Shown here in pieces: positions 20,249 to 40,756 of a DNA stretch of 64,000 nucleotides (position 1 is the stretch's first letter; every line of letters begins with the position of its first letter). Source of the DNA: Candidatus Omnitrophota bacterium. Its GTDB lineage: Bacteria > Omnitrophota > Gorgyraeia > Gygaellales > Profunditerraquicolaceae. The notes below the pieces were generated by a model, which was not told the DNA's origin, ran no database searches, and worked only from the letters and a program-made list of their open reading frames with translations. Location: positions 264,962 to 328,961 of the forward strand of contig JBAZTA010000003.1 of the NCBI GenBank assembly GCA_041662125.1, in the 5' to 3' direction. Both the position numbers and the translations under genes were made by a program.

Positions 20249-20263
20249 AATAAAGAATAATGC

Positions 20264-21580: not shown

Positions 21581-21597
21581 AATTAACTCCGGGTATT

Positions 21598-22635: not shown

Positions 22636-22667
22636 ACCTCAAATTTTAAATTAAAATTATTAAATAC

Positions 22668-23825
22668 CTATAGTAGTTTAAGGACCGCTAAAATAACCCG
22701 GGCAACATCATTATCTGTCATCGCGGGAAAAAGAGGCAAAGACAAACATTCTTTATAATACTTTTCAGCCTCGGGAAAATCCTTCCTGGAAAAATGAAAA
22801 TTCTTTTCATAAAAAGGTTGGCGGTACACAGGGATATAATGCACCTGGGTGCCGACACCTTCCCAAGTGAGCTTCTCAATAAACTCCTTCCGTGACAACT
22901 TTAGCTTCGCAAAATCGATACGCACGACATATAAATGGTACGCGCACAATGCATCATCCGTAGTAACCGGACGCAGGCAGGAATGTTTTTTGAACGCGGC
23001 ATTATAGAGTGAAACAATATGCCGGCGCCGGGCAATAAAACTCTCGATCTTCCTTAATTGGCTTATCCCCAGGGCAGCTTGAATATCCGTCAAACGATAA
23101 TTAAACCCCAGTTGGCGCATCTCATAGTACCAGGGCCCGGGGCTATTTTTTATTAAAAGAGGGCTTCTCGTAACTCCGTGCGACCGCAGGCAACAAAGAA
23201 AGTCATACAATTTTTTATTATTCGTCATGACCGCCCCCCCCTCACCGGTCGTAATCGTTTTAACCGGATGAAAAGAAAAAATAGTCATGTCTGAATATTT
23301 ACCATTACCGACTCGACTGCCGTCAAGATAGCGGCTGCCGATCGCATGAGCGGCATCTTCGATCACAAAACAATTCTTACGTTTGGCAAAAGCGGATATT
23401 TCTTTCATCAGAGCAGGACGTCCTGCAAAATGGACAGGGATAATGACCTTGGTATCCTTTCGAATAACGCCTTCCAGGGCCCCCAATGATACATTCACCG
23501 TTTCTGCATCGATATCCGCAAACAAGGGAATAATACCGTTATACACCAAAGCATTCACCGACGCCAAAAAAGTGATCGGCGATGTAACACCAGTCGCCCC
23601 CTTCTTCAGGCCAAGTGCAGCTACTGCCAAATGAAGGGCGGCTGTGCCGCTGGAGACAGCAACACAATACTTCGCGCCAGTATATGCGCACAACGCGCGT
23701 TCAAATTCAAAAACACGCGGGCCTTGCGTTAAAAATTGACTTTTAAGAACCTTCACTATTGATAGGACATCATCATCATCGATCAGTTGTCTTCCATAGG
23801 GCAGGCAGGAACGAATGCGTTTCAT
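22668..23825 (-). CDS. pseC: UDP-4-amino-4,6-dideoxy-N-acetyl-beta-L-altrosamine transaminase (DegT family)
   Basis: 'LPYGRQLIDDDDVLSIVKVLKSQFLTQGPRVFEFE' and Lys motif 'FSFHPVKTITTGEGGAVMT'. Immediately follows pseB. Alternative upstream Met at 23840. Confidence 0.8.
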   Translation of the reverse strand: MKRIRSCLPYGRQLIDDDDVLSIVKVLKSQFLTQGPRVFEFERALCAYTGAKYCVAVSSGTAALHLAVAALGLKKGATGVTSPITFLASVNALVYNGIIPLFADIDAETVNVSLGALEGVIRKDTKVIIPVHFAGRPALMKEISAFAKRKNCFVIEDAAHAIGSRYLDGSRVGNGKYSDMTIFSFHPVKTITTGEGGAVMTNNKKLYDFLCCLRSHGVTRSPLLIKNSPGPWYYEMRQLGFNYRLTDIQAALGISQLRKIESFIARRRHIVSLYNAAFKKHSCLRPVTTDDALCAYHLYVVRIDFAKLKLSRKEFIEKLTWEGVGTQVHYIPVYRQPFYEKNFHFSRKDFPEAEKYYKECLSLPLFPAMTDNDVARVILAVLKLL

Positions 23826-23826
23826 A

Positions 23827-24828
23827 TCAGTGTGCCTCATTTTTTAGATTTTTAACCATATCGGCAAGCTCATCAAGGCTGAGGCGCTCCCGATTCAAGT
23901 CACTGCGGTACTCAAAACCACCCGGTAAAGGTTTTCCGCGTTTATATTTCGAAAAGGCTTCATCTAAATACAAAAACTGCGGCAACACAACATAATATTC
24001 CTTAAGATCAAAAGCTATGCGCGCCTCGTCTTCAGAAATCAATGTTTCATGGATCTTTTCACCAGGACGGATACCGATCGGTTTTAATCGGCACTCCGGC
24101 TCAATAGCCTTTGCTAAATCCACTACCCGCATAGACGGGATCTTAGGAATAAAAATCTCACCGCCAACAGATTCGTCCAATGCTTTGAGCACCAAATCAA
24201 CGCCTTGATCAAGTGTTATCCAAAAACGCGTCATTCGTTCATCGGTAATTGGAAATTCTTTAATACCCCGATTCTTGAGCTCTAGGAAAAAAGGGATCAC
24301 ACTTCCCCTGGACCCGACAACATTTCCATAACGCACGACTGAAAATTTTACCCGGGCGCCGCCATACGCATTCGCCGCGACAAAGAGCTTCTCAGCAACA
24401 AGTTTGGTAGCGCCATAAAGATTAGCCGGGCTAACGGCCTTATCCGTTGACAAAGCGATAACTTTCTTAACTCCAGCGTCAATGGCCACATCAACGATAT
24501 TATTAGCGCCATCGACATTGGTTCTGACCGCTTCAGTGGGATTGTATTCCAAGGCAGGTACCTGTTTCAAAGCAGCAGCATGAATAATATAGTCAACTCC
24601 TTCAAAAGCGCGGTGCATACGATTTTTATCGCGGATATCTCCGATAAAATAACGCATAGATGGATACTGTTTATCCGAGAAAATCTTTTCCATCTCATGC
24701 TGTTTATATTCATCACGGCTGAAAATGATCAGTTTTGCCGGTTTATACCGTTTGAGCACTATTTCTGTGAATTTATGCCCAAAAGACCCTGTTCCCCCAG
24801 TAATTAAAATAGTCTTATTATTTAACAT
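23827..24828 (-). CDS. pseB: UDP-N-acetylglucosamine 4,6-dehydratase (inverting), PseB/FlaA1 family
   Basis: 333 aa. 'MLNNKTILITGGTGSFGHKFTEIVL' PseB/CapD-like N-terminus. Strong SD 'AAGAAGGGG' upstream. Confidence 0.85.
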   Translation of the reverse strand: MLNNKTILITGGTGSFGHKFTEIVLKRYKPAKLIIFSRDEYKQHEMEKIFSDKQYPSMRYFIGDIRDKNRMHRAFEGVDYIIHAAALKQVPALEYNPTEAVRTNVDGANNIVDVAIDAGVKKVIALSTDKAVSPANLYGATKLVAEKLFVAANAYGGARVKFSVVRYGNVVGSRGSVIPFFLELKNRGIKEFPITDERMTRFWITLDQGVDLVLKALDESVGGEIFIPKIPSMRVVDLAKAIEPECRLKPIGIRPGEKIHETLISEDEARIAFDLKEYYVVLPQFLYLDEAFSKYKRGKPLPGGFEYRSDLNRERLSLDELADMVKNLKNEAH

Positions 24829-24916: not shown

Positions 24917-26362
24917 CTATTCCTTGATCTCAGGCTTACCTAAACCTTTTTTTTCAAAAACAAAATAGAGAATAATGCCCAAGAAAATAGGCAAAATCTG
25001 CATGCGGTAACGGCAAACGGTACCCAAATTATAACCGACAAACCCATAAGCAATTGACCAAACCACAATTAAAGAAATTGCCCATATGAAAAAGGGGGTA
25101 AATAATTCACGCCAGCGAACCTTAAAAACAGCAATAATAAATAAAATCAGTAAGACAGTGTCTTCAAGGCCAGCCATGAGCCCGAAAATATTTTTAACCT
25201 CTCCCGGCAAAGGCCTGAATAAAACCGTAAATACCCCGCGAGGGACAAAAAGAGCCAAATCTTTGAGTCCTCGGTATTTAATCTTTACAGTCACCCCTGA
25301 ATTTTCATCAATTGCAGTCTCATACGCCGGCTTATTTTCACCCACAGGATCCTTAGGATCACGAGCCAAAGCGTTATCACCGGAATCTGCTTTTTTAAAC
25401 ATTTTACCATCAGGTTTTGCTTCAAGCAGACTACCCCCGATTGAAAATGTTGTGAATCTTTTATTAGCAAAAATTGAAAGATCCTTGAACGATTTAAGAT
25501 AAAATATCTTCGTGACCCCATGAGTTGAAAACACCAATATTATGATTGAAGAAACAAAAACTAACACATAACCTATTTTTTTAAAACTATTTCTATTCAA
25601 ACACATCATACGGACTACCATTAACAAAACGGGCAAGCCTAAAATAATTCCCAGCCATAAGCGGATATATACCGAAGTGATCAACCCCAAAATTATAAAC
25701 ACGGAAGAAGAAAACGATTCAGTTCTTATTAACTTGACGACGCCATAGCTATAGACGGCTATGGCGATAAGGAGAATCGGTTCTTTGCCGATAACAGAAG
25801 ACCAAAAAAGTATCGATGGGAATAATGCAAAGACGTATAAAAGGCGCACGATATCTCTTCGCAAAAACTCAGCCGCAGCAAGATAAAAAACATAGCAGGC
25901 AAAAAGGCCGATCATTCCAAAACTTGCCTTTATAGCATGAAACGAGTCAAGGAAACTGTTACGCAGGACCTGAATAAGTAATATCACCGGATTGGATGGC
26001 CCCAGGACCTCCATCCTTCTCCATTCGCGGATATGATGCGTAGCAGCGTTAAAATACCCATATGAATCAACCTGATAATGGTGCTCGTAAAAAAGCATCA
26101 AACCAAGCATGACAAAACACTTCACCATCCAAATATAGCCGAGAGCTTTCTTATGAGCTGATGGCACAGGCCAAAAATATATCGTAACTCCCAAAAAAGC
26201 CGCCCATGCTACCCCGATCACATAATCTAAACGGATATTCTTTTGCGGTATACGTTTACCCAAAATCTCAACCAGCTTTAAAAAATGCGGCAGCGTATAA
26301 ACAAAAACTAAAAACCCGACCACTATTAACAAAATTAAAAAAAGATTATTCTTTTTCAACAC
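24917..26362 (-). CDS. Polytopic membrane protein with large soluble loop (possible Wzy-like polymerase/ligase or membrane glycosyl/acyl transferase)
   Basis: About 480 aa with at least 10 hydrophobic segments and a roughly 130-aa hydrophilic loop. No ATG near the 5' end, so GTG/TTG start at about 26362/26359 was inferred just after the upstream stop. Confidence 0.35.
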   Translation of the reverse strand: MLKKNNLFLILLIVVGFLVFVYTLPHFLKLVEILGKRIPQKNIRLDYVIGVAWAAFLGVTIYFWPVPSAHKKALGYIWMVKCFVMLGLMLFYEHHYQVDSYGYFNAATHHIREWRRMEVLGPSNPVILLIQVLRNSFLDSFHAIKASFGMIGLFACYVFYLAAAEFLRRDIVRLLYVFALFPSILFWSSVIGKEPILLIAIAVYSYGVVKLIRTESFSSSVFIILGLITSVYIRLWLGIILGLPVLLMVVRMMCLNRNSFKKIGYVLVFVSSIIILVFSTHGVTKIFYLKSFKDLSIFANKRFTTFSIGGSLLEAKPDGKMFKKADSGDNALARDPKDPVGENKPAYETAIDENSGVTVKIKYRGLKDLALFVPRGVFTVLFRPLPGEVKNIFGLMAGLEDTVLLILFIIAVFKVRWRELFTPFFIWAISLIVVWSIAYGFVGYNLGTVCRYRMQILPIFLGIILYFVFEKKGLGKPEIKE

Positions 26363-26372
26363 AACACCTTTT

Positions 26373-27413
26373 TTAGTTGTCCTTGCATAAAAAATGCCAA
26401 TATGGCAGTGTATCAGAAATAACCACACTTTTAAATGAATCCTGCAACGCGGCAATATCTTTCTTACTAAACCGTTGTTCTATACGCGTAAAAAACCGGT
26501 CATAAACATCTTGACGGATCCGCGCAAGCGTTTTTCCTCTATAGCCTTCATACAGCGGGACAGAACAACGCAAATTCATTTTATGCAACAAAGCTCCGAG
26601 TGAAATTAACGGAAGATACACGGTAATTGCGACAACACTGGTAAATACTGACCGGAAAAATTCATTTCTAACATGCGATACCGCTAAACGGACCATGGTT
26701 ACCAGGGAAAGTAAAACTTGGAAAAATCTCGGCCGGTTATCAAGTGAATAATACAAATATATCAAAAGAGCAGGTGAATAACTTTTAAGTTTTCTGACGG
26801 TTGCCAAAGCGTTAACCGGCATATGGTGCAAAACACCAAGACAAAACAGGAAATCAGCGAACGGGGTTGCAAAGGGGAGACAATTGATATCAGCCATAAA
26901 AAAAATAGCATTATCGCGGCGGCGCAGGTTCCTGCGGGCCACAAAGATCGCTTCTGAAAAATCAACAAGCACCAATTCACGGCAGGCATCCCCAAGGAAA
27001 TAACTCCAGCGGCCGATACCGCAACCTAAATCGCAGACACGCGCATGCTTCAAATCGTCAATATTGACGAGGTCAAAATATTGTGAAAACTCTTCTCTAT
27101 GCTCAGGTAAAATATCGGGAAACTGCTGCCATTCTGACCCAAAGGTAAATTGGATATCTTCCGCGAAATCAGCTGAAACAGCAGTTTTTTTAATACTGCC
27201 GGCCAGCCTTTTTTGAAGCGCAGGCGGATATTGATCAGGCTCAAGCAAGATAATAACATCATCAACAATCGGATACCTGCGATTGTTGACAATAAGTAAA
27301 TCACCTTTAAGCTCGATATTGCGGGTTCCAAAAATATCTTTCAGGCTAGCGATCTTATTGTCATAAAATAGAGTTTTTCCGGGCTTTACACTATTTTGTT
27401 TAAGCTCGTTCAT
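26373..27413 (-). CDS. Class I SAM-dependent methyltransferase with hydrophobic C-terminal extension
   Basis: 346 aa. Motif I 'VCDLGCGIGRWSYFL'. C-terminal about 100 aa hydrophobic. Confidence 0.65.
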   Translation of the reverse strand: MNELKQNSVKPGKTLFYDNKIASLKDIFGTRNIELKGDLLIVNNRRYPIVDDVIILLEPDQYPPALQKRLAGSIKKTAVSADFAEDIQFTFGSEWQQFPDILPEHREEFSQYFDLVNIDDLKHARVCDLGCGIGRWSYFLGDACRELVLVDFSEAIFVARRNLRRRDNAIFFMADINCLPFATPFADFLFCLGVLHHMPVNALATVRKLKSYSPALLIYLYYSLDNRPRFFQVLLSLVTMVRLAVSHVRNEFFRSVFTSVVAITVYLPLISLGALLHKMNLRCSVPLYEGYRGKTLARIRQDVYDRFFTRIEQRFSKKDIAALQDSFKSVVISDTLPYWHFLCKDN

Positions 27414-28341: not shown

Positions 28342-29280
28342 TCACCCCAGCCCTAACTGACGCATCACCTTCGGATGGTCGATTTCAAACTGATCGGCAT
28401 GAGGACGTAAACACGCATCATCTTTTGTGCGAGTCACTAGTACGACATTACCAGGATTGATTACCTGTTGGGCCTCAACCGCCAGATGCAGCCAGGAACC
28501 GTTCACACTTTTTGAATCATCAAGCACCAGAAGTTTCTTGGTACGCCGGACGTTGTTTAAAATCGTACTCCAATTGACCGGAAGCATGGCATTGACAGAA
28601 AAAAGCGTTGCGTCAAGACCATGTTTTTTTAGGTCATGGTAAAGCAAGAGCCCCTGCGGAAAGGAAAAGTTAAAACAGGCAATCGTCAGGCCACTGCCAT
28701 GGGAATATTGGAATATTTCGGCGTTTTCATCACAGGAAACACCCTCAGTTGTTTCCAAAACCTCCTGGCGGCATAGGCGCTGACTGATACCGATAATACG
28801 AAAACCGGGAGCAATGAGATGTTTACTCAAAATGAATTCCGCGTCAGCTTTATTCGTGATCGCATACCCGGGAATACGGGCAATGGAACAAAAATCAGCA
28901 AAATTATTCAAAGAGGATTGCGGCCCTTCATAGCCGCTATCAACAACGACATTGACTATAGTAAAAGAACTTCGAGCCTTCCTGCCCCTGACCAAGTTAT
29001 AGGTATTCACAAGCTGGTCGATACCCAGGAGCAGGAAATCCTGCTGTTTCATGAAAAATATTGATGAAACCCCGTTCAGCATTAAACCAAACCCCGTCCC
29101 CACAAGGGTATTTTCGCAATTAGGGGTATTCAAAACAAACTGGCCGTCTTGATTTTTGAGGCCTTTGGTCAGGCCTCCGATACAGCTTCCGGCGGCGATA
29201 TTTTGCCCAAACATGACTAATGGCTTAATTTCAGAAACTCGCTGCCGGATCAATCCATTGATGTGCGTAATATAATTCAT
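28342..29280 (-). CDS. Thiamin-diphosphate-dependent E1 component beta-subunit-like protein (transketolase-like Pyr/C-terminal domains)
   Basis: 312 aa. N-terminal region aligns in pattern with pyruvate/acetoin dehydrogenase E1-beta ('...FGQNIAAGSCIGGLTKGL...NTPNCENTLVGTGFGLMLNG'). ATGA-coupled to the E1-alpha-like gene. Confidence 0.65.
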   Translation of the reverse strand: MNYITHINGLIRQRVSEIKPLVMFGQNIAAGSCIGGLTKGLKNQDGQFVLNTPNCENTLVGTGFGLMLNGVSSIFFMKQQDFLLLGIDQLVNTYNLVRGRKARSSFTIVNVVVDSGYEGPQSSLNNFADFCSIARIPGYAITNKADAEFILSKHLIAPGFRIIGISQRLCRQEVLETTEGVSCDENAEIFQYSHGSGLTIACFNFSFPQGLLLYHDLKKHGLDATLFSVNAMLPVNWSTILNNVRRTKKLLVLDDSKSVNGSWLHLAVEAQQVINPGNVVLVTRTKDDACLRPHADQFEIDHPKVMRQLGLG

Positions 29281-30206
29281 CCAAGCTCCTTGCGTACGTC
29301 CGCCAGGACGTTTTTCGCCAGCGTCTTTAGAAAATCATTTTCAAAATGTTTAGTCAAAACATATACGGGATCTCCCTCTGTCTCCTCAATGACCGGCCAA
29401 TCAGATAATTCTACCGTGGGAGCTGCCCCCGCATGATAATTAATATATTTTCCTTCAGGATACTCATCGGTCTTCATACGCCAGTCACCAAGGGTGCGAA
29501 GGGAAACTTCAATGATTACCGGAGTTTTTTCAGCCAGTGCTTTTGCGCGCGCTTTCTCCAGCAGCGGGATATATTCAAAAACGTCATTTCCTTTAATTAA
29601 TTCATATGGTATTTTAAAAGCAGAGGCAAAACGATCGAGCGCTATATCGCATCTGCGCTCATGGATCTCTGTTGCCAAGGACCAATTATTGTTCTCGACA
29701 ATAATCAATGCCGCAGTAGCATATGTCTTCATCATCAGTAAGCTCTCTTGGAAAACCCCTTCTTCAATAGCCCCATCACCGATGACAACGATAGCCACAC
29801 CTTTTGTTTTCTTAACGGTGTTTCCTAAGGCTACACCGGTAGCAACAGCCATTTGGTTCCCCAGGATACTTGAGGTATACAAAACTCTTTTCTCCTCATT
29901 GTAAAGGTTCATGCATCCCAATTGGCCGCCAGCCTCTCCTGAATCAAGGCATAAGTATTCAGCGATCTTTTGTTTTAATGAAGGGCTGAGCGCCAAATTA
30001 TAATGGATATTCCGGTGCGTCAATAATAACCAGTCGTTTTCTTTCATTATAGAAGCCAGCGCTACCGCTATAGCCTCATGCCCTAATGCCAAGTGAACCG
30101 GGATTTTAAATTGTTTTTGTTTATTTCCCTGGTTTACCAGCATCTGGCAGAACCGAAGACGCAAGACTTCCCGAGCATTTTTTTTATTATCTTTTTTAGT
30201 AGGCAT
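29277..30206 (-). CDS. Thiamin-diphosphate-dependent E1 component alpha-subunit-like protein
   Basis: 309 aa. 'GHEAIAVALASI' (GQEA-like). ThDP-binding 'GDGAIEEGVFQESL...ENNNWS'. Confidence 0.7.
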   Translation of the reverse strand: MPTKKDNKKNAREVLRLRFCQMLVNQGNKQKQFKIPVHLALGHEAIAVALASIMKENDWLLLTHRNIHYNLALSPSLKQKIAEYLCLDSGEAGGQLGCMNLYNEEKRVLYTSSILGNQMAVATGVALGNTVKKTKGVAIVVIGDGAIEEGVFQESLLMMKTYATAALIIVENNNWSLATEIHERRCDIALDRFASAFKIPYELIKGNDVFEYIPLLEKARAKALAEKTPVIIEVSLRTLGDWRMKTDEYPEGKYINYHAGAAPTVELSDWPVIEETEGDPVYVLTKHFENDFLKTLAKNVLADVRKELG

Positions 30207-31139: not shown

Positions 31140-32231
31140 CTACTTTTTAACGCTTTCAAATAATCGATCCCACTGCAAAAGATACTGTTCTTGGCTATAC
31201 TCGGTTTCTGCGATTTTAAGGCCGGCAAGGCCTGCAGCCTTTCTTGCATCCGCGCCAAGGATCAACTTTTCCAATTTTTCATACCAGTCCTGGTTATTCT
31301 TGCAATATAACGGCATCCCGATTTTCTCCATGATGCGCGTGTACGTTGGTATAGCAGAAACAACGCAGGGCATACCCATTCTCCAGAAAAACAATAATTT
31401 GTTTTCCGGTTTACCGCGCATAAGCGGATCAGCGGTGTCCAGAGGAATAACAGCAATATCGCATCCGGTTATCAGGCGGGAAACGTCTTGCTTATTCCAC
31501 TGATAGAGATACACCAAAGAATCATTACCGCTTACCGTATTGGCATGATACTCTGAGCCAAAAATGCGCTGCAGCTGTTTAACCATGGAGACCTTTTTAA
31601 AACGATTCATGTATCGGCCATATTCCAGGTCGGTAATGACATATAAAGACAACGGGTATTTCGCCTTGAGTTGTATCAATACATCTTTTATCCCCGCCAA
31701 TGCTGCCGCATTCTCAGGCCGGCCTTCCCAAACAAGTTTTATCTTTTCCGGTTGCGCGTAATCATTTTTAACGCGGCTTGCGATCTTTTGATGGAATTCC
31801 AAGATAACATGGACATTCCGGCAATATTCCTGAATATCGTGCTTCTGTTCGAGAGTAGAACACATAACCGCGTCGGCGCGCCTGCACATGTCTTTAATGG
31901 CATCAGCGTAATTCAGCCGTAACGACCGGTGTTCTCCGACGCAGAATTTGGCAAAACCCCGCAAAGCTCCTTTGAGGTCAAAGCCGGATACCGCTAAATA
32001 GGAATCTACAAGCATATAAATAAGCTTGGTTTTTCTCCTTGGGAAACGGTTCCAAAAGCTTAAATCGACCTGAGGAGTCAAGACCACAATATCATATTCT
32101 TTATTCGGGTCAGCTATTTCAAATGGAATATTTCGTTTACGCGCGTAATAAACGAAATTCCTCAAGTCAAAAGGATGTAACGATGGGCTTCTGAATGGCA
32201 CATAACCAATGCTAAAACCGGATAAATCCAT
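31140..32231 (-). CDS. Hypothetical protein, possible GT-B-fold glycosyltransferase
   Basis: About 363 aa. C-terminal 'CDIAVIPLDTADPLMRGKPENKLLFFWRMGMPCVVSAIP' resembles the GT1/GT4 donor-binding region. Start uncertain; the ORF-track Met at 32309 would overlap hddA by 50 nt. Confidence 0.35.
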   Translation of the reverse strand: MDLSGFSIGYVPFRSPSLHPFDLRNFVYYARKRNIPFEIADPNKEYDIVVLTPQVDLSFWNRFPRRKTKLIYMLVDSYLAVSGFDLKGALRGFAKFCVGEHRSLRLNYADAIKDMCRRADAVMCSTLEQKHDIQEYCRNVHVILEFHQKIASRVKNDYAQPEKIKLVWEGRPENAAALAGIKDVLIQLKAKYPLSLYVITDLEYGRYMNRFKKVSMVKQLQRIFGSEYHANTVSGNDSLVYLYQWNKQDVSRLITGCDIAVIPLDTADPLMRGKPENKLLFFWRMGMPCVVSAIPTYTRIMEKIGMPLYCKNNQDWYEKLEKLILGADARKAAGLAGLKIAETEYSQEQYLLQWDRLFESVKK

Positions 32232-32259
32232 AGGTATTTTATCGCAGCAAGACTGCGCT

Positions 32260-33252
32260 TTAAACCGCCGATTGATCGTAATAGGTGATCCGCGTTCCTG
32301 CGTTCTCAAATTTAAAAGGAAGGCGATAGAGATTATTCAGGGCATGCGCAACTGCCGGCTGTTTTTTCGGTTCTACAAAAAACAGCAGAAATCCGCCTCC
32401 GCCTGCTCCAAGCAGTTTACCTCCCAGCGCCCCTGCCGATAAAGCACGGTTATAATACCCATCGATTTCCGAAGAAGAAATTTCATCGGTTATACTCTTT
32501 TTTAAAAGCCACCCTTTATGCAATAAACGCCCAAATTCGCGTATATCAGCGCCGCTGGAAAGGATCTCACGCAAAGGAGCGACTAAATCCCTCATTGCAA
32601 CAAGCACATGCCGCTTCTCTTGGGTCTTGGTGTTTTGAACAGATAAAATATCGTGCGCATCGCGCTTTATCGCGGTATAAAACAACATCAGATGATTTTC
32701 AATAGTTTCTTTTATTTCAGGGCGGTAAAAAACCGGGTCGACCGAAACAGTGCCGTCAGTATGAAAGGTAAAGACATTAAGGCTCCCATACGCGGCAGCG
32801 TAATGGTCTTGCTTGCCGATAGTGCGCTTCAAAACATCGATCTCAAGGCGTGAAGCCATTCCGGCTAAGACGCCTTTGGTTACCATTTTCCCTTTTAATG
32901 CAAAAAGCGCATGCAAGAGTCCTACGGCGAAAGAACTCGAAGACCCTAAGCCGGTATTAGCAGGTATATCGGCAAACGTGGAAACTTCAAGCGGAATATC
33001 TAAATCCATCATCTTCAAGGCTTCACGTACGATCGGATGTTCGATATCTTCAATCTTATCCTTAAACTCGACCTTACTCCAATTGATACGGAACTTATAT
33101 TCTGAAATAGCAGTCTGGCGTTTTACCGCCACATAAATATACTTATCAATACCGGTGCTGATGACCTGCCCTTCTTCTTTTAAATAAAACTCCGGCAAAT
33201 CGGTGCCACCGCCGGCAAAACTGATTCGAAAAGGAGTCCTTGATAGTATCAT
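32260..33252 (-). CDS. hddA: D-glycero-alpha-D-manno-heptose 7-phosphate kinase (GHMP kinase, HddA type)
   Basis: 330 aa. N-terminus 'MILSRTPFRISFAGGGTDLPEFY' matches the HddA/fucokinase-type GHMP kinases. ATP-binding 'NTGLGSSSSF'. Confidence 0.75.
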   Translation of the reverse strand: MILSRTPFRISFAGGGTDLPEFYLKEEGQVISTGIDKYIYVAVKRQTAISEYKFRINWSKVEFKDKIEDIEHPIVREALKMMDLDIPLEVSTFADIPANTGLGSSSSFAVGLLHALFALKGKMVTKGVLAGMASRLEIDVLKRTIGKQDHYAAAYGSLNVFTFHTDGTVSVDPVFYRPEIKETIENHLMLFYTAIKRDAHDILSVQNTKTQEKRHVLVAMRDLVAPLREILSSGADIREFGRLLHKGWLLKKSITDEISSSEIDGYYNRALSAGALGGKLLGAGGGGFLLFFVEPKKQPAVAHALNNLYRLPFKFENAGTRITYYDQSAV

Positions 33253-34469
33253 GCGCTCACCAAATTATCAAATGCTTCAGATACATTTTTAAATACATAC
33301 CGCGGCCTTTCATCCGGTTGGAGTTTTTTTAATTCATCGACTGGCCCCGTATAAACACAGGCGCATCCGGCCTGATACGCTGCCTGGCAGTCCCGGGAAT
33401 CATCTCCAATAAAAAAAGTTTTATCTAACCGAAAGAGCCATTTACGGGAGGCCTCAAAGAAAAGCCCTGGTTGGGGCTTACGGCAAAAACATTTCTCTTC
33501 CCAGTGGTGCGGGCAAACAAAAATATCTATAATAGGGATCCCTTGATCTTCAAGAGCCCGCTTCATTCGTTTATGAATATCATCAACTGCTTCCCGCGTT
33601 ACCAACCCTCGGGCTATGCCTGCCTGGTTAGAAATGACAATAAACGAATAACCGGCTAAACTGAGCTTTTTCATTCCTTCGACATTTTCCCGCATGAATG
33701 AAAAAGCATCCCATGAAGACACATATTCACCGCGCAAAGCCTTATTATTTATGACTCCATCACGGTCAATCAGCAGGATTTTCTTTGGGCATAAATACTT
33801 TTGGGCCACCTTCAAACGATCCATGTCTGAGATACTGTAATACGCATCCAAAACGAGCATCCCAGCCACTTCTCCCGCCGATACCAACTTGTTTATTATA
33901 TCAGAAAAACTTACCTTTGAACAAGTATAATATTTGAATATTTTCTTACTGACAACCATATACCCCAGCTCAACCAAATCCAATCCTTGAGCCTGGCGGG
34001 ACGTATCATAAGCTTCTACAATCCCGCATTCTCCCAATCGAATATTGCCGTTTTCTTTAGGCGTAACTATAAAACTAAGCAGCTTTTTGTGCTGATTGTA
34101 AAACGATACGCTTTTTTTTAAGCTAAAGACGAGGAAATTATCACTATACAAAAGTAAAAAATGTTCCTGGAGCATATCCCGGGCTTCAAAAAGCCTTCTG
34201 CCGGTCTCCCATTCTGCCGGCCCATGAGAATAGAGTATCCTCAATCCCAGTTTTTCTCCATCTCCGAAATAATTACGGATCTGCTCTCCCAAATACCCTG
34301 TCATCAAAAGAATTTCGCTAATACCGTTATCTTTAAGCTGCTCCAGAAGATACTGTAAAAAAGGAACGCCGTTAATCATGACCATCGGCTTAGGCATCGT
34401 GTCTGTTATCGGGCGTAACCGTACCCCTAATCCGCCGCAAAATATAGCCGCCTGCTTAGGAGAAACCAT
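33249..34469 (-). CDS. Bifunctional heptose-1-phosphate nucleotidyltransferase (HddC-like) / D,D-heptose 1,7-bisphosphate phosphatase (GmhB-like HAD) fusion
   Basis: 406 aa. N-terminal 'AAIFCGGLGVRLRPITDTMPKPMVMINGVPFLQYL' sugar-1-P nucleotidyltransferase. C-terminal 'ILLIDRDGVINN' HAD motif I. Confidence 0.7.
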   Translation of the reverse strand: MVSPKQAAIFCGGLGVRLRPITDTMPKPMVMINGVPFLQYLLEQLKDNGISEILLMTGYLGEQIRNYFGDGEKLGLRILYSHGPAEWETGRRLFEARDMLQEHFLLLYSDNFLVFSLKKSVSFYNQHKKLLSFIVTPKENGNIRLGECGIVEAYDTSRQAQGLDLVELGYMVVSKKIFKYYTCSKVSFSDIINKLVSAGEVAGMLVLDAYYSISDMDRLKVAQKYLCPKKILLIDRDGVINNKALRGEYVSSWDAFSFMRENVEGMKKLSLAGYSFIVISNQAGIARGLVTREAVDDIHKRMKRALEDQGIPIIDIFVCPHHWEEKCFCRKPQPGLFFEASRKWLFRLDKTFFIGDDSRDCQAAYQAGCACVYTGPVDELKKLQPDERPRYVFKNVSEAFDNLVSA

Positions 34470-35343
34470 GTTTTTTCCTTAATTCCTTGATTGTTTCTTT
34501 AATACCTTTTTCAAGCGGCATCAAAGGTTTCCAACTTGTTTTACCGCGCAAGCGTGAAACATCCGCCCAAAACCCGTCTTTACCATTACCATTTGTTTTC
34601 TCCGGTAATTCACCTTTGTAGCCTGCGGCCTGGGCAACATACTGGCAAACTCGGACAACCGGCGTTTGGACGCCTGAACCTATATTAAAAACACCGTTTA
34701 TGCCTTCAGCCTCAATCAAAGCCTTTATTGCCAGAGCTACATCAGAAACATGAATAAAATCACACACAGTGTTTGGATTCTTAACTACCGGTTCCTTCCC
34801 TTTTGCAAAAGCCGCATAACATAGGGGTATCAATGAAGTTTCTCTTTGTCCGGGGCCATAAACAAAAAACATCCTTCCCCAGATAAAATTAACATTCCGC
34901 TGACGTGATAAACTCTCCCCTACCATTCTTACACTTGTTTTAAAAGAAGCAAAGAGGCTTACTTCCTCAGGAATTTGATCCTCTTTTACAGGGCCGTTGA
35001 GATTTCCATACTCCCAACACGTACCCGCCGAGAAAATCTTTTTACACCCGTTTAAGGTGAGGTATTCAAACAACAAAGCGCTTATAGTAAAGTTTTCCAA
35101 ACAGCGTGCGAAAGAATAGTCAGGCAACCCTTTCCAGGCCAAATGACAACAAGCTTCAGGAGCAAAATCCAAAACAGATTTTCCCCAAGCCGAGATATCG
35201 GCCAAATCCGCCTTAAGAGAGGTGACTTTTCTATTGGGGATAGAGACTTCATTTGTGTCCAGCAAAAGCAGTTCATGGCGTGATAAAAGAGGGACAAGGT
35301 GTTTTCCGATAAATCCCGTTGCTCCCGTGATTAAAATACGCAT
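34456..35343 (-). CDS. NAD-dependent epimerase/dehydratase-family reductase (RmlD/GDP-fucose-synthase-like)
   Basis: 295 aa. 'ILITGATGFIGKHLVPLL'. Paralogous to 41669..42580 ('LAW...GTCxEYG'). Confidence 0.65.
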   Translation of the reverse strand: MRILITGATGFIGKHLVPLLSRHELLLLDTNEVSIPNRKVTSLKADLADISAWGKSVLDFAPEACCHLAWKGLPDYSFARCLENFTISALLFEYLTLNGCKKIFSAGTCWEYGNLNGPVKEDQIPEEVSLFASFKTSVRMVGESLSRQRNVNFIWGRMFFVYGPGQRETSLIPLCYAAFAKGKEPVVKNPNTVCDFIHVSDVALAIKALIEAEGINGVFNIGSGVQTPVVRVCQYVAQAAGYKGELPEKTNGNGKDGFWADVSRLRGKTSWKPLMPLEKGIKETIKELRKKHGFS

Positions 35344-35354
35344 AGATTATTCTC

Positions 35355-35915
35355 TTAAAAAGTATTTTTCGCTTTCGAAACTATCTGTGGGTCAAAATCA
35401 GGATAACTGCGGTCTTTTTCAGAAATAACACGGGGTTCCACAGGCCATGTAAACTTGAACATAGGATCATTATAACGCAATCCTTTATAGGCTTCTGGAA
35501 CATAATATTCAGACATGTAATACAAAATCGAGGTATCGTCTTTAAGCGTTAGATAACCATTCGCGCAGCCTGCAGGAAGGTGCAGGCTCACAGGCTCCTC
35601 TGCATTCAGCTCAACCGATATCCATTTTAGAAAGGTAGCCGAATCTGGCCTTAGGTCGACAATAATATCATAGATAGCGCCGGAAATGCAGAGCATGGTT
35701 TTATGCTCAGAATAGGGTTTAAGCTGATAATGCATGCCCCGCAAGGTATGCGACTTGCTGTTCTGGGAAACATTGGTCTGCAGGATCCTTGCTTCCAATC
35801 CGTTGCTCTCAAATTCTTTCTTGCAGAAATGCCTGAAGAACATACCCCGGCTATCTTTAAACGGCTCTGCTTCGATAAGAAAAACTCCCGGGATTTTTTG
35901 TTTATAAAATTTCAT
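35355..35915 (-). CDS. NDP-4-keto-6-deoxy-sugar 3,5-epimerase (RmlC family cupin)
   Basis: 186 aa. 'GVFLIEAEPFKDSRGMFFRHF' RmlC signature region. Confidence 0.75.
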   Translation of the reverse strand: MKFYKQKIPGVFLIEAEPFKDSRGMFFRHFCKKEFESNGLEARILQTNVSQNSKSHTLRGMHYQLKPYSEHKTMLCISGAIYDIIVDLRPDSATFLKWISVELNAEEPVSLHLPAGCANGYLTLKDDTSILYYMSEYYVPEAYKGLRYNDPMFKFTWPVEPRVISEKDRSYPDFDPQIVSKAKNTF

Positions 35916-35917
35916 AT

Positions 35918-37165
35918 TTAGAGTGAAATAGTGTACGGCTCATGAGGCAACGGTATAATGATCTTACCGTGAAAATGATACTTGTTCTTTAACAGTGCTA
36001 AAATTTCAGATTTAAAGTTCCATGCCAACAAAACAATTGTATCGGGCTTTAAAGCAAAGGCTTCTTGCGGGGAGACGATCAGAATATTTGTCCCTGCCGT
36101 ATAGGTATTATGCTTCAAGGGGTTCTGGTCAGCGATACAAACCAAATATTCATTATTGATCGCGCAATAATTAAGCAGTGTTGAGCTGCGTGCTGAAGCG
36201 CCATATCCAATGATAGTTTTTCCTGTTTTGAATTCTGCATCCAGCAATTTGGTTAATTTCTTACGATGTGCCAAGCAATCGCGCGCAAACGCCTTCCACA
36301 GTGTCAATGTATTTAACCCTATTTCTTTCTCACAGAGGATCTTTTGTTTCAAACCCTTTGAATGGGCTTTTTTCTTGTCGTCATGGGTAAAATAGACCAC
36401 CAAAGAACCGCCGCTGATCGGACTTTTCATGAGGTCATAAACCGCTAAACCATGCTGCCTGAGCAAAAACATAATGCTCTTGAGCGAAAAATAGAACAAA
36501 TGTTCATGATAAATAGAATCATACTGCAGGCCGTTTACAATCTCTTGAGCATAATGAAACTCTATCGCACCAACCCCCTCGCAGCCCAGGCAGCATTTTA
36601 TCCCTGCAATAACTTCATGGATTAAAGCAACATGAGGGATAACATTACGGGCAAAAACAAAATCTGCCGCGCCTTGGGTTGCAACAATCTTATGAGCGAC
36701 CGTTTCATTAAAGAATTCTGCCTGCGTCGGTATGCCCTGCTTTCGAGCAAGAGATGCGATATTCTCGGCAGGATCTATACCTTGAACCTTACAACCCTGT
36801 TCCCGGAATGCTTTTAAGAAGGTACCGTCATTACTGGCAATTTCCACAACAAAAGGTTTGTGTGATTTTAAGTGTTTTTTCGCCGCTTGGAAGAAAATAC
36901 CTGCATACTCCTTTGCAGTGGCAGATGTGCCGGTCACCCAAACATAGTGTTTAAACAAGAGCTCTGGATTAACGGTCTGGGTCAACTGAATAGTAGTACA
37001 ATGAGCGCATCGGCAAAGCGCAAGCGCAAATTTTGGCAGTTCTCTAGAAAGGTTCTTGCGAAGGGTGTTCGCAGGAGGCTGCGCGCCTAAATCAAGAAAT
37101 GTTTTGATCAAACCACTTTTACAGATACGGCAGCGCGTGATCGATTCCGATAACTTTTTTGGCAT
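35918..37165 (-). CDS. NDP-hexose C-methyltransferase (TylC3/NovU-type, zinc-ribbon + class I MTase + C-terminal domain)
   Basis: N-terminal 'CRICKSGLIKTFLDLGAQPPAN' matches the CxxC...LDLG.QP.AN start of the C-methyltransferase family. Start trimmed to 'MPKKLSE' to avoid overlap. Confidence 0.65.
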   Translation of the reverse strand: MPKKLSESITRCRICKSGLIKTFLDLGAQPPANTLRKNLSRELPKFALALCRCAHCTTIQLTQTVNPELLFKHYVWVTGTSATAKEYAGIFFQAAKKHLKSHKPFVVEIASNDGTFLKAFREQGCKVQGIDPAENIASLARKQGIPTQAEFFNETVAHKIVATQGAADFVFARNVIPHVALIHEVIAGIKCCLGCEGVGAIEFHYAQEIVNGLQYDSIYHEHLFYFSLKSIMFLLRQHGLAVYDLMKSPISGGSLVVYFTHDDKKKAHSKGLKQKILCEKEIGLNTLTLWKAFARDCLAHRKKLTKLLDAEFKTGKTIIGYGASARSSTLLNYCAINNEYLVCIADQNPLKHNTYTAGTNILIVSPQEAFALKPDTIVLLAWNFKSEILALLKNKYHFHGKIIIPLPHEPYTISL

Positions 37166-37169
37166 GCTT

Positions 37170-38222
37170 TTAGGCTTCTTCCTGATCTTCAATGCTATAT
37201 CGCAGCTCGTTATCAAGCTGGCGCGACTGAAGCATATACTCCAGCTGTTTTAAACGGTTAGTCATTCTACCCCTGAATTGATCTTCATTGAATTTAACTT
37301 TCTTGAAAAACTCAACCAGCTCTTCTCCGCCTCTGATTAAATCCCATTCAGGCTTAAAATAATCTTTCAAAACTGTCAATATCTTCTTAAAACTGACACG
37401 GTATGTCCGGGAATCTTTCCCGTGCTCGCCGGTAAAAATAAGTTTACTCCCCTTTACGGCCTTCTGCGCTGCTTCCCCAAGGTCTCTGACCGTAAAATTG
37501 CCGTTAGGGATACCGACATTAAATGATTGATTCGCAACCAGGTCTTTTGGCGCTTCTAACCCCGCGATAAAAGCACTTGAAACATCCCTGATATGCACCA
37601 CCGGCCTCCAGGGTGTTCCGTCGCTTTTAATCTCAATCTTACCCGTCGTGTAAGCACACCCTACCAGGCTGTTATAAACAATATCGCAGCGCAGCCGCGG
37701 GCTTGCCCCAAAGACAGTTGATGGACGAAAAGCAACAACTACAAAATCCCGGGTTCCCAGCTCCCGCAGCTTCAATTCAGCAAGCCATTTTGTTTTCGCA
37801 TAGACCGTAATAGGATTCTTTTCACTTGTATCTTCATCCAGCTCGCCTTCTACATTTGAGACCCCATACATACTCTGGGATGATGAATATATAAAGCGTT
37901 TAACTCCCGCCTTTTTTGCTAAAGCAGCTAAGGAAACCGTCGCATGAAAATTTATTTCTTCAGTCAAACGCGGTTCCAACGCGCCTAAGGGGTCGTTAGA
38001 AAGCCCGGCTAAATGGATAACAGCATCAAAACCTTCAACATCCCCCAACACAATATCCCGAATATCTTTCCTGATCATGGTATATGCATGCTTTGCCGGA
38101 AACAGGCTGTTTTGGGCGTAATAATCAACATCATACCCAACAATGTCGTAGCCCTTCTCGATCAACATTCCTGTTAATACACTCCCAATATATCCTCGGT
38201 CACCCGTAACCAGAATTTTCAC
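37170..38222 (-). CDS. NAD-dependent epimerase/dehydratase-family protein (GalE/WcaG-like)
   Basis: 350 aa. GTG start with SD 'GAGGT'. 'ILVTGDRGYIGSVLTGML'. 'YAKTKWLAE'. Paralog of 53447..54454. Confidence 0.7.
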   Translation of the reverse strand: MKILVTGDRGYIGSVLTGMLIEKGYDIVGYDVDYYAQNSLFPAKHAYTMIRKDIRDIVLGDVEGFDAVIHLAGLSNDPLGALEPRLTEEINFHATVSLAALAKKAGVKRFIYSSSQSMYGVSNVEGELDEDTSEKNPITVYAKTKWLAELKLRELGTRDFVVVAFRPSTVFGASPRLRCDIVYNSLVGCAYTTGKIEIKSDGTPWRPVVHIRDVSSAFIAGLEAPKDLVANQSFNVGIPNGNFTVRDLGEAAQKAVKGSKLIFTGEHGKDSRTYRVSFKKILTVLKDYFKPEWDLIRGGEELVEFFKKVKFNEDQFRGRMTNRLKQLEYMLQSRQLDNELRYSIEDQEEA

Positions 38223-38351: not shown

Positions 38352-39506
38352 TTATACTGATTCTTTTACGTTTTGCTTATTGATCCAGTCGGCGAATTCT
38401 TTTATATTCGAAATATCTTTCAAAAGGATCGCCCCCTGCCAGAGGCTTTGCACTTTAGACTTCTTTGCGCCTGCCAAGAGAAGAAATAAGCGCTGCCAAC
38501 TCTGCGTATCAAAAAATATCGTCAATACGCACAACCAGTCAAAAAAAGACAATTTTCCCATCCAGCGGATAATATCACCCCCAGAAGCAGCCCGGGAACG
38601 ATACTGCAGATACCAGGAATAAACCTGCCGACGCACGTAATTTGCCCGGCTGATCTCAACAGCACTCAAAAGCTCAGGATAATTAGTCTTGAGAAGTTGC
38701 AGCCACACATACATGCAATTATTAAGCTCAATCCCCGCAAGCCTGCCTTTGAAATCAGAATTTATCCCTAAATATTTCTTGCCTTCATCCTGTTTGTCGC
38801 TATACACGTAATGGCCAAAGGATTTAGGAGAAACCCCGACTACCAGCATTTTTTCAGGAAGAAATACCCAGGAATTAACGGTCAACAATAAAGAATTTAA
38901 CGCGTAATGGTCAGGAAATGGCGGTTGAAAAGCCCCACCCTTGATCGTATTCATTGCTTTGCGCGACATTAATGTCGTCTGCATATTCAGAGGGATACGA
39001 TTACGGAAAGAGAACATGTCACGGACAATTGAAAGCCTTTTTTCCGTTAAAATTAATCCTTCTCTTGTGAAATCCGGCCCAAAATTAAAAAAAGGATCTT
39101 TATAAAAACTATTGGCGTTTCCGCTAATTGAATGAGGCGCTACATAACTATACGCGTTATAGGTGACACAGTCAGGATCATGATACGCATGTAAGACTTC
39201 TGCCATGCGGGAAAAATATCCCGGAAGCAGGCAATCATCATCACCCATCATCAATACATAATCGCCGCGGCTCGACTGGAGCGCACGATTCCAATTCTCG
39301 GTCACACACACCGGTTCTTCTAACGTCACCACTTTCAGGCGCTTATCAGAGATAAAAGAATGAATAACTTTTTTAGTTTCATCGGTATTGGCATTATCAG
39401 AAACGACTAACTCCATATCCTGGTACGGCTCATCTAAGATAGAATGCATGCAATGCGAGAGGAAACGCCCTCCGTTACGAGTAGGCAGCAGCACAGAAAA
39501 TTTCAC
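38352..39506 (-). CDS. Glycosyltransferase family 2
   Basis: 384 aa. 'SVLLPTRNGGRFLSHCMHSIL' and 'VVSDNANTDETKKV' (DxD region) of the GT2 family. Confidence 0.75.
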   Translation of the reverse strand: MKFSVLLPTRNGGRFLSHCMHSILDEPYQDMELVVSDNANTDETKKVIHSFISDKRLKVVTLEEPVCVTENWNRALQSSRGDYVLMMGDDDCLLPGYFSRMAEVLHAYHDPDCVTYNAYSYVAPHSISGNANSFYKDPFFNFGPDFTREGLILTEKRLSIVRDMFSFRNRIPLNMQTTLMSRKAMNTIKGGAFQPPFPDHYALNSLLLTVNSWVFLPEKMLVVGVSPKSFGHYVYSDKQDEGKKYLGINSDFKGRLAGIELNNCMYVWLQLLKTNYPELLSAVEISRANYVRRQVYSWYLQYRSRAASGGDIIRWMGKLSFFDWLCVLTIFFDTQSWQRLFLLLAGAKKSKVQSLWQGAILLKDISNIKEFADWINKQNVKESV

Positions 39507-40756
39507 TTCTTATTCTCCTTATCTTTAAGATTCAGATATATTTCTTCAACATAACCGCTCCTGACCCATGAAGCATTTCTCCCAAGGCGTTTAAAACCCC
39601 CTACCTGAGCAACAACTTCAGGCACCCATACCTGCGGTTTTCCATGCACGATACTATAAGCTTCATGATTATAACTGAAAAATATGCCGCGCAGGCGCTT
39701 TTTCGCAAACGAGATATACGCGCTTACGATTTCTTCCGACATCTCCGGCATGCTGTTTTCATTCACCAACACATCGATATCCTGCTTTATTGCCGGCTCA
39801 AAAGCAACATTCGGCAGGATAGATATACAAGCGCTTGATTGGTCAATTTCTCCGTATAACTTCACCTGCCTTACGGTGAACGCCTGCGATAAAAAATATC
39901 CCTGCAACACGTTTATTAACGGCAAATCAATAATAGTATACGTTCTGATCTTAAGGTCCTTAAGTTTCAACAACCAATACGCTAATCCTCCAAAACCAGC
40001 GCCAATTTCCAGCAGATTGAGCTCATTGCCTGCTGTAACATTCAAATGATCCCGGGCAGCCTGACTGATACGCAGTGCGACATAAAGATGTTCAGGATGT
40101 TCCATAGTTATTAACGAACTATTCGCTTTAACGCCGTAGGGACTGCCTATATCAGGGAATCCTATTGAGATGCCCAAACAGGCTTCGATTTGAGAGACAA
40201 CTGCTGTAATCCCGTCCTTTAAACCATACGCTCTAAGCCCTTGTTGAGTAGATTCAGCGCGTACCAAACCCAAGTATTCCGCCAATGAAACCACATTGTC
40301 TTGATATTTCAATGACCAGATTTTACTTCCTATCCGGCTCTTGGAATGTTCCACTAAACTCCCCGAAGCTAAACCATACACAAAATCCTCCCGGAACATC
40401 CTGGATAAAAGCAAAGCTAATTCGTGCGCGTTTCCTCTCTCAACAACAGTCATAAGCTTCCCGGAATAACGCTTAAGGCCTTCTGACCAGATCAGGCTCG
40501 TATTGTTTTCTGGCGTTGATCTCTCAGCGGTAGCTTTACGATACGCGGCGATCAAACGTTCACATAAAACCACGTCTTCTTGAGATACCTCTTTAGCCTT
40601 ATTGTATATGATTTTCAACGTAGGGACCTTTTTTAAATTAAAAACCCAAAGATAGTGCTTCAAATATTTAAGCAGATCATAATTTATAAGCGAAACCCCC
40701 ATCGCCCGGGAGAGCCTGCTGTTGAGGATTTTTTTTATACTGTTCTTTAAAAACAT
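39503..40756 (-). CDS. Putative SAM-dependent (sugar O-)methyltransferase, large LIC12133-like type
   Basis: 417 aa. Motif I 'LLEIGAGFGGLAYWLL' in the C-terminal half. Long N-terminal domain of unknown function. Confidence 0.45.
   Translation of the reverse strand: MFLKNSIKKILNSRLSRAMGVSLINYDLLKYLKHYLWVFNLKKVPTLKIIYNKAKEVSQEDVVLCERLIAAYRKATAERSTPENNTSLIWSEGLKRYSGKLMTVVERGNAHELALLLSRMFREDFVYGLASGSLVEHSKSRIGSKIWSLKYQDNVVSLAEYLGLVRAESTQQGLRAYGLKDGITAVVSQIEACLGISIGFPDIGSPYGVKANSSLITMEHPEHLYVALRISQAARDHLNVTAGNELNLLEIGAGFGGLAYWLLKLKDLKIRTYTIIDLPLINVLQGYFLSQAFTVRQVKLYGEIDQSSACISILPNVAFEPAIKQDIDVLVNENSMPEMSEEIVSAYISFAKKRLRGIFFSYNHEAYSIVHGKPQVWVPEVVAQVGGFKRLGRNASWVRSGYVEEIYLNLKDKENKK

Follow-up and report, generated by a model that had tools for sequence, protein, structure and literature searches.

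Two putative NDP-heptose cassettes and a reverse-order HldE-like protein in a surface-glycan locus of Candidatus Omnitrophota

Nucleoside diphosphate (NDP)-β-heptoses are precursors of the core of lipopolysaccharide (LPS) and potent agonists of ALPK1. In the E. coli enzyme HldE, a kinase domain of HldA type precedes a nucleotidyltransferase domain of HldC type. Heptose nucleotidyltransferases (HENases) are sorted into three classes (Tang et al. 2024, as summarised in PMC11573728 and PMC11461863): mono-domain enzymes, kinase/nucleotidyltransferase di-domain enzymes and isomerase/kinase/nucleotidyltransferase tri-domain enzymes. In the α-route, the kinase WcbL has catalytic residues R13 and D163 (PMC4691232); the nucleotidyltransferase HddC carries an EXEPLGTGGA motif, and its Glu80 reads the guanine base (PMC6981941). 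Cj1427 oxidises NDP-heptose at C4 and has a tightly bound NADH that is recycled by α-ketoglutarate (PMC10680097). C2 branches are added to 4-keto sugars by the pairs AviB1/AviB2 and Pau11/Pau12, related to the E1 component of pyruvate dehydrogenase (PDH), and by YerE, a flavoenzyme resembling acetolactate synthase (ALS) (PMC4753412). The window, i.e. the whole stretch of DNA analysed (64 kb of a Candidatus Omnitrophota genome), contains surface-glycan genes, all on the minus strand, of a cluster that extends beyond it. Two cassettes are distinguished: cassette A (32260-38222), with a GHMP kinase and a nucleotidyltransferase-phosphatase fusion, and cassette B (about 50381-57574), with a sugar isomerase (SIS) and a protein having the two domain families of HldE in the reverse order, called CT-PfkB. 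On homology and synteny, it is held rather probable that they are parallel NDP-heptose cassettes fed by one isomerase product, one through a GHMP α-kinase and the other through a PfkB β-kinase, each leading through a Cj1427-type oxidation to tailoring.

The four open reading frames (ORFs) named in the original prediction are all present, with exact coordinates, and contain the peptides it had quoted. They encode the GHMP kinase (HddA/WcbL type; 32260-33252; 330 aa; contains RTPFRISFAGGGTD), the fusion of a nucleotidyltransferase (residues 1-228) and a GmhB-type HAD-IIIA phosphatase (residues 229-406; 33249-34469; 406 aa; DRDGVINN), the GmhA-like SIS isomerase (54461-55039; 192 aa; Pfam SIS_2) and CT-PfkB (55045-56571; 508 aa; contains HCHGVFDLIHPGHIRHL and DPIGAGDAFFA). 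The genes of the GHMP kinase and of the fusion overlap by 4 nt. The SIS gene lies downstream of the CT-PfkB gene, with 6 nt between the stop of the latter and the start of the former. When the whole window was searched in all six frames, SIS, HAD, GHMP kinase and CT-PfkB each turned up exactly once; neither a second GmhB nor a second GmhA was found in the 64 kb. The closest relatives of the window are metagenome-assembled genomes (MAGs) of Candidatus Omnitrophota. An Omnitrophota MAG contig of 395,841 bp encodes P0121 and P0391, which match the fusion and the Cj1427-like protein of cassette B at 100% identity.

In what follows, equivalog refers to the cut-off of an NCBIfam model, fold match to a Foldseek search with an AlphaFold2 (AF2) model, and PDB sequence search to phmmer. 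The HldE reference, compared by BLASTP, is that of E. coli K-12 (L089:10321-11754). In CT-PfkB, Pfam places CTP_transf_like at residues 32-157 and PfkB at 196-486; the HldC-like nucleotidyltransferase domain spans about 26-160 and the HldA-like PfkB kinase domain about 188-505. Residues 12-128 align with HldE 326-442 (39% identity, E 4e-20), and residues 188-503 with HldE 4-312 (26% identity, E 9e-19). The reversal of the E. coli order that had been noticed in the original prediction is thus borne out both by the Pfam models and by the permuted BLASTP alignments.

As judged from sequence and fold scores, the closest characterised relatives of both domains are the HldE domains (HldC and HldA). 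The HldE model NF008454 ranks first among NCBIfam models for the whole protein (187 bits). The PfkB domain scores 130 bits (E 1e-37) with rfaE_dom_I (TIGR02198) and at most 36 bits with other PfkB families. The N-terminal domain scores 107.9 bits (E 4e-31) with rfaE_dom_II (TIGR02199) and 34 bits with TagD. In the PDB, the best match of the kinase domain is HldA (4e84); that of the N-terminal domain is HldC (5x9q, 4e-13), ethanolamine-phosphate cytidylyltransferase being similar at 1e-12. With the AF2 model (pLDDT 86), HldA (4e84/4e8y) comes first (E 4e-21, TM 0.84); the next kinases (pseudouridine kinase, ribokinase, PfkB and others) follow at about 1e-15, some five orders weaker. Two identities that would have removed the domains from heptose metabolism are rejected on these scores: a generic ribokinase or fructokinase for the PfkB domain, and a glycerol-3-phosphate cytidylyltransferase (TagD) for the N-terminal domain. 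The heptose-type assignment made earlier stands in this respect. Like HldE, CT-PfkB has HxGH in the nucleotidyltransferase domain (H39-P-G-H42) and GG (235-236) and GAGD (451-454) in the kinase domain, and is linked to a gene for a GmhA-like isomerase; DxxE (387-390) is also retained in the kinase domain.

CT-PfkB belongs to a large family and is not a local oddity. PF01467 precedes PF00294 in all 120 best homologues of CT-PfkB, and the nucleotidyltransferase domain comes first in 81 of the 81 two-domain relatives encoded in the fetched loci (ORFs called, then searched with the window proteins). Relatives were found in at least 543 genomes in a scan with one genome per species. Their hosts, all represented by MAGs whose taxonomic labels may carry binning errors, are Omnitrophota, Margulisiibacteriota, WOR-1/Saganbacteria, Elusimicrobia, Rokubacteria, Bdellovibrionales and Brocadiales, and also Chloroflexota/Dehalococcoidia and the candidate phyla radiation (CPR: Gottesman-, Andersen- and Peribacteria). 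With only the kinase domain as query, an exhaustive HMMER search (E up to 1e-30) gave 552 clusters at 50% identity, mostly proteins of about 500-520 aa with the nucleotidyltransferase first, and some stand-alone kinases. The relatives are named 'PfkB family carbohydrate kinase' at NCBI and 'rfaE bifunctional protein' at JGI.

Literature searches on reversed HldE, on heptose in Omnitrophota and on HENase classes yielded no characterised member with the nucleotidyltransferase first and no description of this architecture, the HENase classes being covered there by summaries. The order is absent from the three classes as these are summarised in PMC11573728 and PMC11461863. The same activities are combined in those classes and here; the present clade, too, has tri-domain members, such as P0270, a natural fusion of nucleotidyltransferase, PfkB and SIS domains whose SIS domain is 48% identical to the window SIS. 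P0299 is a natural PfkB-SIS fusion. The SIS domains of natural fusions are 48-61% identical to the window SIS. Together with the adjacency of the genes and the presence of a SIS gene in 54 of 80 loci (see below), the two fusions that join PfkB to SIS indicate that CT-PfkB is functionally coupled to a GmhA-like SIS. The reversed order probably goes back to hldC-like and hldA-like genes that lay side by side and fused in an independent event. It probably makes no difference to the mechanism, since the steps of the two domains do not follow directly on one another and the domains are also found split.

Two further architectures were observed. P0424 (529 aa) joins a SIS domain (61% identical to the window SIS) and an orthologue (77%) of the Cj1427-like protein of cassette B, in the gene order of the window; it is a single-member cluster, and read-through or an assembly artefact is possible. 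P0063, P0076, P0091 and P0098 (668-692 aa) have two cytidylyltransferase domains before PfkB (alignment A1). The second His of HxGH is lost in the second copy (HPGI/HPGV), which looks catalytically dead; the arrangement is reminiscent of the tandem-domain ethanolamine-phosphate cytidylyltransferase.

Conservation of cassette B was scored in 80 species-level loci by the genes lying up to 6 kb from CT-PfkB; 41 of these loci have enough flank (counts for the latter in brackets). The conserved cassette consists of a GalE-like short-chain dehydrogenase/reductase (SDR), CT-PfkB, SIS, a Cj1427-like SDR and a thiamine diphosphate (ThDP) enzyme. The gene immediately upstream of CT-PfkB in the window encodes a GalE/WbpP-type extended SDR (56576-57574; 332 aa; ASSSCYG and YxxxK; Pfam, NCBIfam, PDB), orthologues of which (420-680 bits) are the most constant neighbours: 67 loci (35). 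A SIS gene is found in 54 loci (29), a ThDP enzyme in 41 (28), an orthologue of the window Cj1427-like SDR in 40 (23) and a GHMP kinase in 2 (2). Three non-orthologous types of ThDP enzyme occur near CT-PfkB: a PDH-E1-like α/β pair, a split transketolase-like enzyme and an ALS/YerE-like enzyme.

The Cj1427-like SDR of cassette B, called SDR335 (53447-54454; 335 aa), is a putative NDP-heptose C4 dehydrogenase of the β-route. In the PDB, Cj1427 (6vo6/6vo8) is matched at 1.2e-42 and the next entry at 2e-25; Cj1427 is also the top Foldseek hit of the AF2 model, and the titles of the PDB entries agree. The segment ATVxGxSPRxRLDLxVN reads RPATVCGYSPRLRLDLSVN in the window SDR and RLATVFGISPRMRLDLLVN in Cj1427. 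Between Omnitrophota, Margulisiibacteriota, Saganbacteria and Schekmanbacteria, SDR335 orthologues share 73-91% identity, and the CT-PfkB proteins encoded next to them in these groups only 55-60%. This excess points to unusually strong constraint or to recent horizontal spread. The nearest characterised relative of the window SIS is GmhA (5e-24 in the PDB, DiaA following at 7e-14), as had been proposed for this ORF. The PDH-E1-like ThDP pair of cassette B (51391-53436: α, 52471-53436; β, 51391-52455; Pfam, NCBIfam) has neither E2 nor E3; its β subunit just reaches the cut-off of the PDH E1-beta subfamily (321.3 bits, cut-off 321). By analogy with AviB1/AviB2, Pau11/Pau12 and YerE, which likewise are E1-like pairs without E2/E3 or a YerE-type enzyme, beside an SDR oxidising a sugar at C4, the pair may be an enzyme that attaches a two-carbon branch to a 4-keto sugar. 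Known acceptors of these enzymes are 6-deoxy or 3,6-dideoxy hexoses or pentoses; here the acceptor would be a heptose, and the function is suggested by synteny only. C4 branching of an NDP-heptose is proposed because E1-like pairs and YerE branch 4-keto sugars and because the pair is syntenic with a Cj1427-like SDR. A heptose substrate and a 4-keto intermediate would be the most economical reading of cassette B.

Cassette A has the kinase-phosphatase-transferase logic of the HddA/HddC route, with the phosphatase and the transferase fused and the isomerase gene 20 kb off, beside the other route. For the 330-aa kinase, which is of COG2605 type (Pfam GHMP_kinases_N and GHMP_kinases_C), the top PDB entries are WcbL and the HddA proteins of B. 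thetaiotaomicron and C. jejuni (about 1e-37), the next family being fucokinase (3e-15). R13 and D163 of WcbL are kept as R9 and D149. In the 406-aa fusion, Pfam recognises NTP_transferase at 8-140 and HAD/PNK3P at 232-399. The HAD domain is nearest to GmhB structures; it has the conserved motifs DRDGVIN, SNQAG, RKP, GDDSRD and the zinc loop CPHHWEEKCFC, and passes TIGR01656 (127.9 bits, cut-off 84) and TIGR01662 (97, cut-off 44.6). The GDP-heptose route of the original prediction is thus kept as regards a kinase nearest to WcbL/HddA and a phosphatase nearest to GmhB; GDP itself is not, the transferase domain being nearer to MurU and lacking EXEPLGTGGA.

The remaining genes of cassette A, assigned by Pfam and NCBIfam or, for SDR350, by PDB search, encode SDR295 (34456-35343), an RmlC-like 3,5-epimerase (35355-35915), a TylC3-type C-methyltransferase (35918-37216) and the Cj1427-like SDR350 (37170-38222). 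SDR350 matches Cj1427 at 2.6e-36 (next entry, 9e-22) and is 39% identical to its paralogue SDR335. Contigs of Fibrobacteria, of Nitrospinaceae and others show the order SDR, C-methyltransferase, RmlC-like protein, SDR, fusion, GHMP kinase again. The Nitrospinaceae cassette (L086) also has its own SIS gene and an E1-like pair of the second type of the window; another (L087) has a SIS gene 42% identical to that of the window. This second, divergent E1-like pair lies in the window downstream of the α-route genes (28342-30206: α-like, 29277-30206; β-like, 28342-29280; Pfam, phmmer), and the same pair adjoins CT-PfkB in L013. Its β-like protein has no Pfam match and is homologous to E1 β at 8e-12. 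A 389-aa ORF (31140-32309) directly downstream of the GHMP kinase has no Pfam match at E up to 1e-4.

Both cassettes thus hold an SDR that is closest by far to Cj1427, the C4 dehydrogenase of GDP-D-glycero-D-manno-heptose (MlghA) which acts with Cj1430 and Cj1428 in the C. jejuni capsule pathway; that Cj1427 stands far ahead of other PDB entries as their match supports a heptose substrate for both. Cassette A resembles that pathway further in having an RmlC-fold epimerase and another SDR. The window differs from it in that its two SDRs are about 31-33% identical to Cj1427, a different nucleotide is expected (in cassette B also a different anomer), the epimerase is nearer to dTDP-sugar RmlC, and the C-methyltransferase and ThDP enzymes have no Campylobacter counterpart. 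The 6-deoxyheptose route of DdahA/GMD type is rejected for cassette A: its first SDR is Cj1427-like and lacks the dehydratase Asp/Glu pair (SSSQSMYG). Of the 6-deoxy or epimerised heptoses that had been suggested after Campylobacter, the 6-deoxy sugars are not indicated: both cassettes have SDRs of the Cj1427 type, which is non-dehydrating, and the RmlC-like protein is nearer to true RmlC than to the Campylobacter heptose epimerases; C4 oxidation followed by branching or epimerisation appears likelier. For cassette A the gene content points to C4 oxidation, then C-methylation, epimerisation and reduction. MurU/AmgK-type recycling is also rejected for the fusion: no AmgK-type kinase is present, the gene is translationally coupled to that of a GHMP heptokinase homologue, and a GmhB domain is fused to the transferase.

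The pathway that we infer from enzyme families and synteny would begin with a shared step, in which the single SIS would convert sedoheptulose-7-phosphate to the 7-phosphate of D-glycero-D-manno-heptose. In cassette A, the HddA/WcbL-type kinase would form the α-1,7-bisphosphate, the GmhB-type HAD domain would remove the 7-phosphate, and the fused nucleotidyltransferase would give an NDP-α-heptose, the nucleotide probably not being determined as in HddC. The Cj1427-like SDR would then oxidise C4, and the C-methyltransferase, the RmlC-like epimerase and the further SDR would finish the sugar. In cassette B, the PfkB domain of CT-PfkB would form the β-1,7-bisphosphate; a GmhB activity (from the cassette A HAD domain or from an unlinked protein) would remove the 7-phosphate; the N-terminal HldC-like domain would yield an NDP-β-heptose, and the adjacent SDR335 its 4-keto intermediate. 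The PDH-E1-like pair would add a two-carbon branch, and further SDRs would reduce or epimerise the product. A wider proposal is put forward tentatively, as one that may well prove wrong: that the reverse HldC-HldA fusion, SIS, Cj1427-like SDR and ThDP carboligase form an undescribed pathway, widespread from Omnitrophota, Margulisiibacteriota and Elusimicrobia to Chloroflexota and CPR, to a heptose with a two-carbon branch at C4 or otherwise tailored on NDP-β-heptose, for surface glycans, the fusion being convergent and having its own nucleotide specificity. Such a pathway would be the first tailoring from a β-anomeric (HldE-type) donor outside the LPS core and natural products of septacidin type.

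Both kinases are argued to use the same isomerase product because both SIS subtypes are found with either route in other genomes. That the window has a single SIS and a single HAD fits the sharing of GmhA and GmhB by the two routes, proposed earlier: the SIS gene belongs to cassette B, about 20 kb from cassette A, and cassette A has the HAD as part of its fusion. This part of the scheme is left less secure by two points: the only HAD of the window is fused to an α-route enzyme, and GmhB orthologues can be anomer-selective. They belong with a series of observations, gathered here, that weigh against the heptose scheme, together with the origin of all relatives from MAGs. For cassette B, these could mean that another sugar derived from a ketose phosphate is activated (an octose, or a higher-carbon or unusual aldose phosphate), with a ThDP enzyme making the ketose phosphate upstream. 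The SIS, the kinase and the nucleotidyltransferase domain all score well below the heptose equivalog cut-offs: 91.8 bits against 209 for GmhA (TIGR00441), 130 against 345 for rfaE_dom_I, 107.9 against 181.5 for rfaE_dom_II, and 187 against 521 for HldE with the whole protein. Kinase residues 362-369 read NTQTNGAN at the DPKG position of HldA/HldE. In the SIS, aligned to B. pseudomallei GmhA, two His are kept, D61 is replaced by I, and E68 and Q175 by D and E; the numbering of these catalytic and zinc residues is presumably that of Harmer 2010. In some cassettes the split transketolase-like enzyme replaces E1 α/β. A HAD phosphatase is usually absent nearby (none in 77 of 80 loci; present in 3 of 80 and in 1 of the 41 with full flank); those of L007, L008 and L042 are stand-alone GmhB-type proteins inside the cassette, and these GmhB-like HADs count for the need of a 7-phosphatase. 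Homologues of GmhA, HddA, GmhB and HddC handle an octose in lincomycin biosynthesis. Against such a substrate, the nearest characterised relatives are all heptose enzymes (GmhA, HldA, HldC, Cj1427), and the window ThDP pair is PDH-E1-like, of pyruvate-decarboxylating type, which agrees better with acetyl branching than with transketolation. In other loci the pair is replaced by YerE-like enzymes, YerE being a known 4-keto-sugar branching enzyme (PMC4753412). On balance a non-heptose substrate of cassette B is considered unlikely. The nucleotide is a separate matter: the motif (F/L)XXGXSTT, by which heptose nucleotidyltransferases bind it (PMC11573728), is missing from CT-PfkB, which has HDITFSSS where E. 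coli HldE has FEDGCSTT. The family motif is ITFSSS (150-155), with the consensus T-x-[DE]-[IV]-[TV]-F-S-S-[ST], F152, S153 and S154 being invariant or nearly so (family alignments A1, A2). At position 5 of the STT motif there is invariably Phe and not the Arg that marks NTP promiscuity in HENases as summarised. With TxDITFSSS in place of the heptose motif, ADP, which had been assumed as the nucleotide of the HldE-like enzyme, is unsupported.

The heptose substrate could also be kept and the role changed, CT-PfkB and SIS being a housekeeping supply of ADP-heptose for the LPS inner core and the GHMP route alone serving polysaccharide. A diderm envelope is expected of Omnitrophota, the 84 neighbourhoods examined contained no canonical HldE with the kinase first, and the JGI label is that of rfaE; yet the family occurs in MAGs of LPS-less lineages (Dehalococcoidia, Chloroflexota and the Gottesman-, Andersen- and Peribacteria of the CPR), and CT-PfkB, unlike HldE, lies in a tailoring cassette and not among LPS-core genes, with tailoring SDRs and ThDP enzymes almost always at its flanks. 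Pfam scans of the window ORFs gave no GT9 heptosyltransferase domain, and the window has no HldD-scoring protein. The host range and the lack of GT9 among the window ORFs argue that cassette B is not an LPS-core pathway, and the housekeeping role is rated as quite improbable. Cassette A, in turn, could activate a non-heptose sugar through a 1,x-bisphosphate, which would leave one heptose route in the locus or none. The HddA model NF049969 is met at 152 bits over nearly the full length (cut-off 600), and in the window cassette A has no SIS gene beside it. The transferase domain scores 104.9 bits with MurU and 90.5 with the HddC model NF049965 (cut-off 300); in place of EXEPLGTGGA it has SHGPAEWETGRR, conserved in the fusion family as YSHGP(V/A)EW(D/E)TG(R/K)R (alignment A3), with Gly at the position of Glu80. 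Three further points weigh against the heptose scheme in general: the HAD domain misses the GmhB equivalog PRK08942 (145.7 against 178), the RmlC-like protein matches dTDP-sugar RmlC at 1e-37 and the C. jejuni heptose 3-epimerase at 9e-16, and SDR295 and its Fibrobacteria orthologue have F-A-S-F-K at the YxxxK position, the Tyr apparently being replaced by Phe (alignment A4). Nevertheless, the structures closest to the GHMP kinase are those of three heptose-7-phosphate kinases, the HAD domain carries the full GmhB signature, the same cassette includes a SIS gene in L086 and L087, and it begins with a Cj1427-like SDR. A non-heptose cassette A is accordingly given little credence, and two NDP-heptose cassettes remain the preferred reading.

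If this reading is true, CT-PfkB would represent a fourth heptose-activating architecture, formed by a large family with its own active-site motifs. α- and β-anomeric heptose activation may then run side by side in one organism from a single isomerase. A β-heptose donor would widely start tailoring (C4 oxidation, ThDP-dependent branching) in uncultured phyla, including some without LPS. The model provides a cassette of four to six genes for reconstitution, and corrects the annotations 'PfkB family carbohydrate kinase' and plain 'rfaE'.

Other features of the glycan cluster are as follows. Three genes (47028-48812, 57571-58821 and 58837-59610) account for a bona fide glucose-1-phosphate cytidylyltransferase (TIGR02623: 427 bits, cut-off 300), another C-methyltransferase of TylC3 type and a ThDP enzyme resembling ALS/YerE; they suggest an extra CDP-hexose branched-sugar route, yersiniose-like. 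A carbamoyltransferase (60364-62229; Carbam_trans_N 341 bits, Carbam_trans_C 239 bits), just upstream of the CDP-glucose genes, hints at O-carbamoylated sugars. A nonulosonic-acid module (14313-24828) comprises a PseB-like dehydratase (23827-24828), NeuB (14313-15428), a CMP-sugar synthetase (18569-19342), aminotransferases, and formyltransferase-like, WbqC-like and PIG-L deacetylase proteins. Two B12-binding and two SPASM radical S-adenosylmethionine (SAM) enzymes (2776-4275, 9349-10737, 12283-14300) lie beside a Wzx flippase (10748-12259). Many SAM methyltransferases are dispersed across the window. Six ORFs of 246-884 aa, among them the 389-aa ORF mentioned above, have no Pfam match at the same threshold: 42616-45270, 24917-26455, 39503-40756, 31140-32309, 8182-9318 and 6408-7148.

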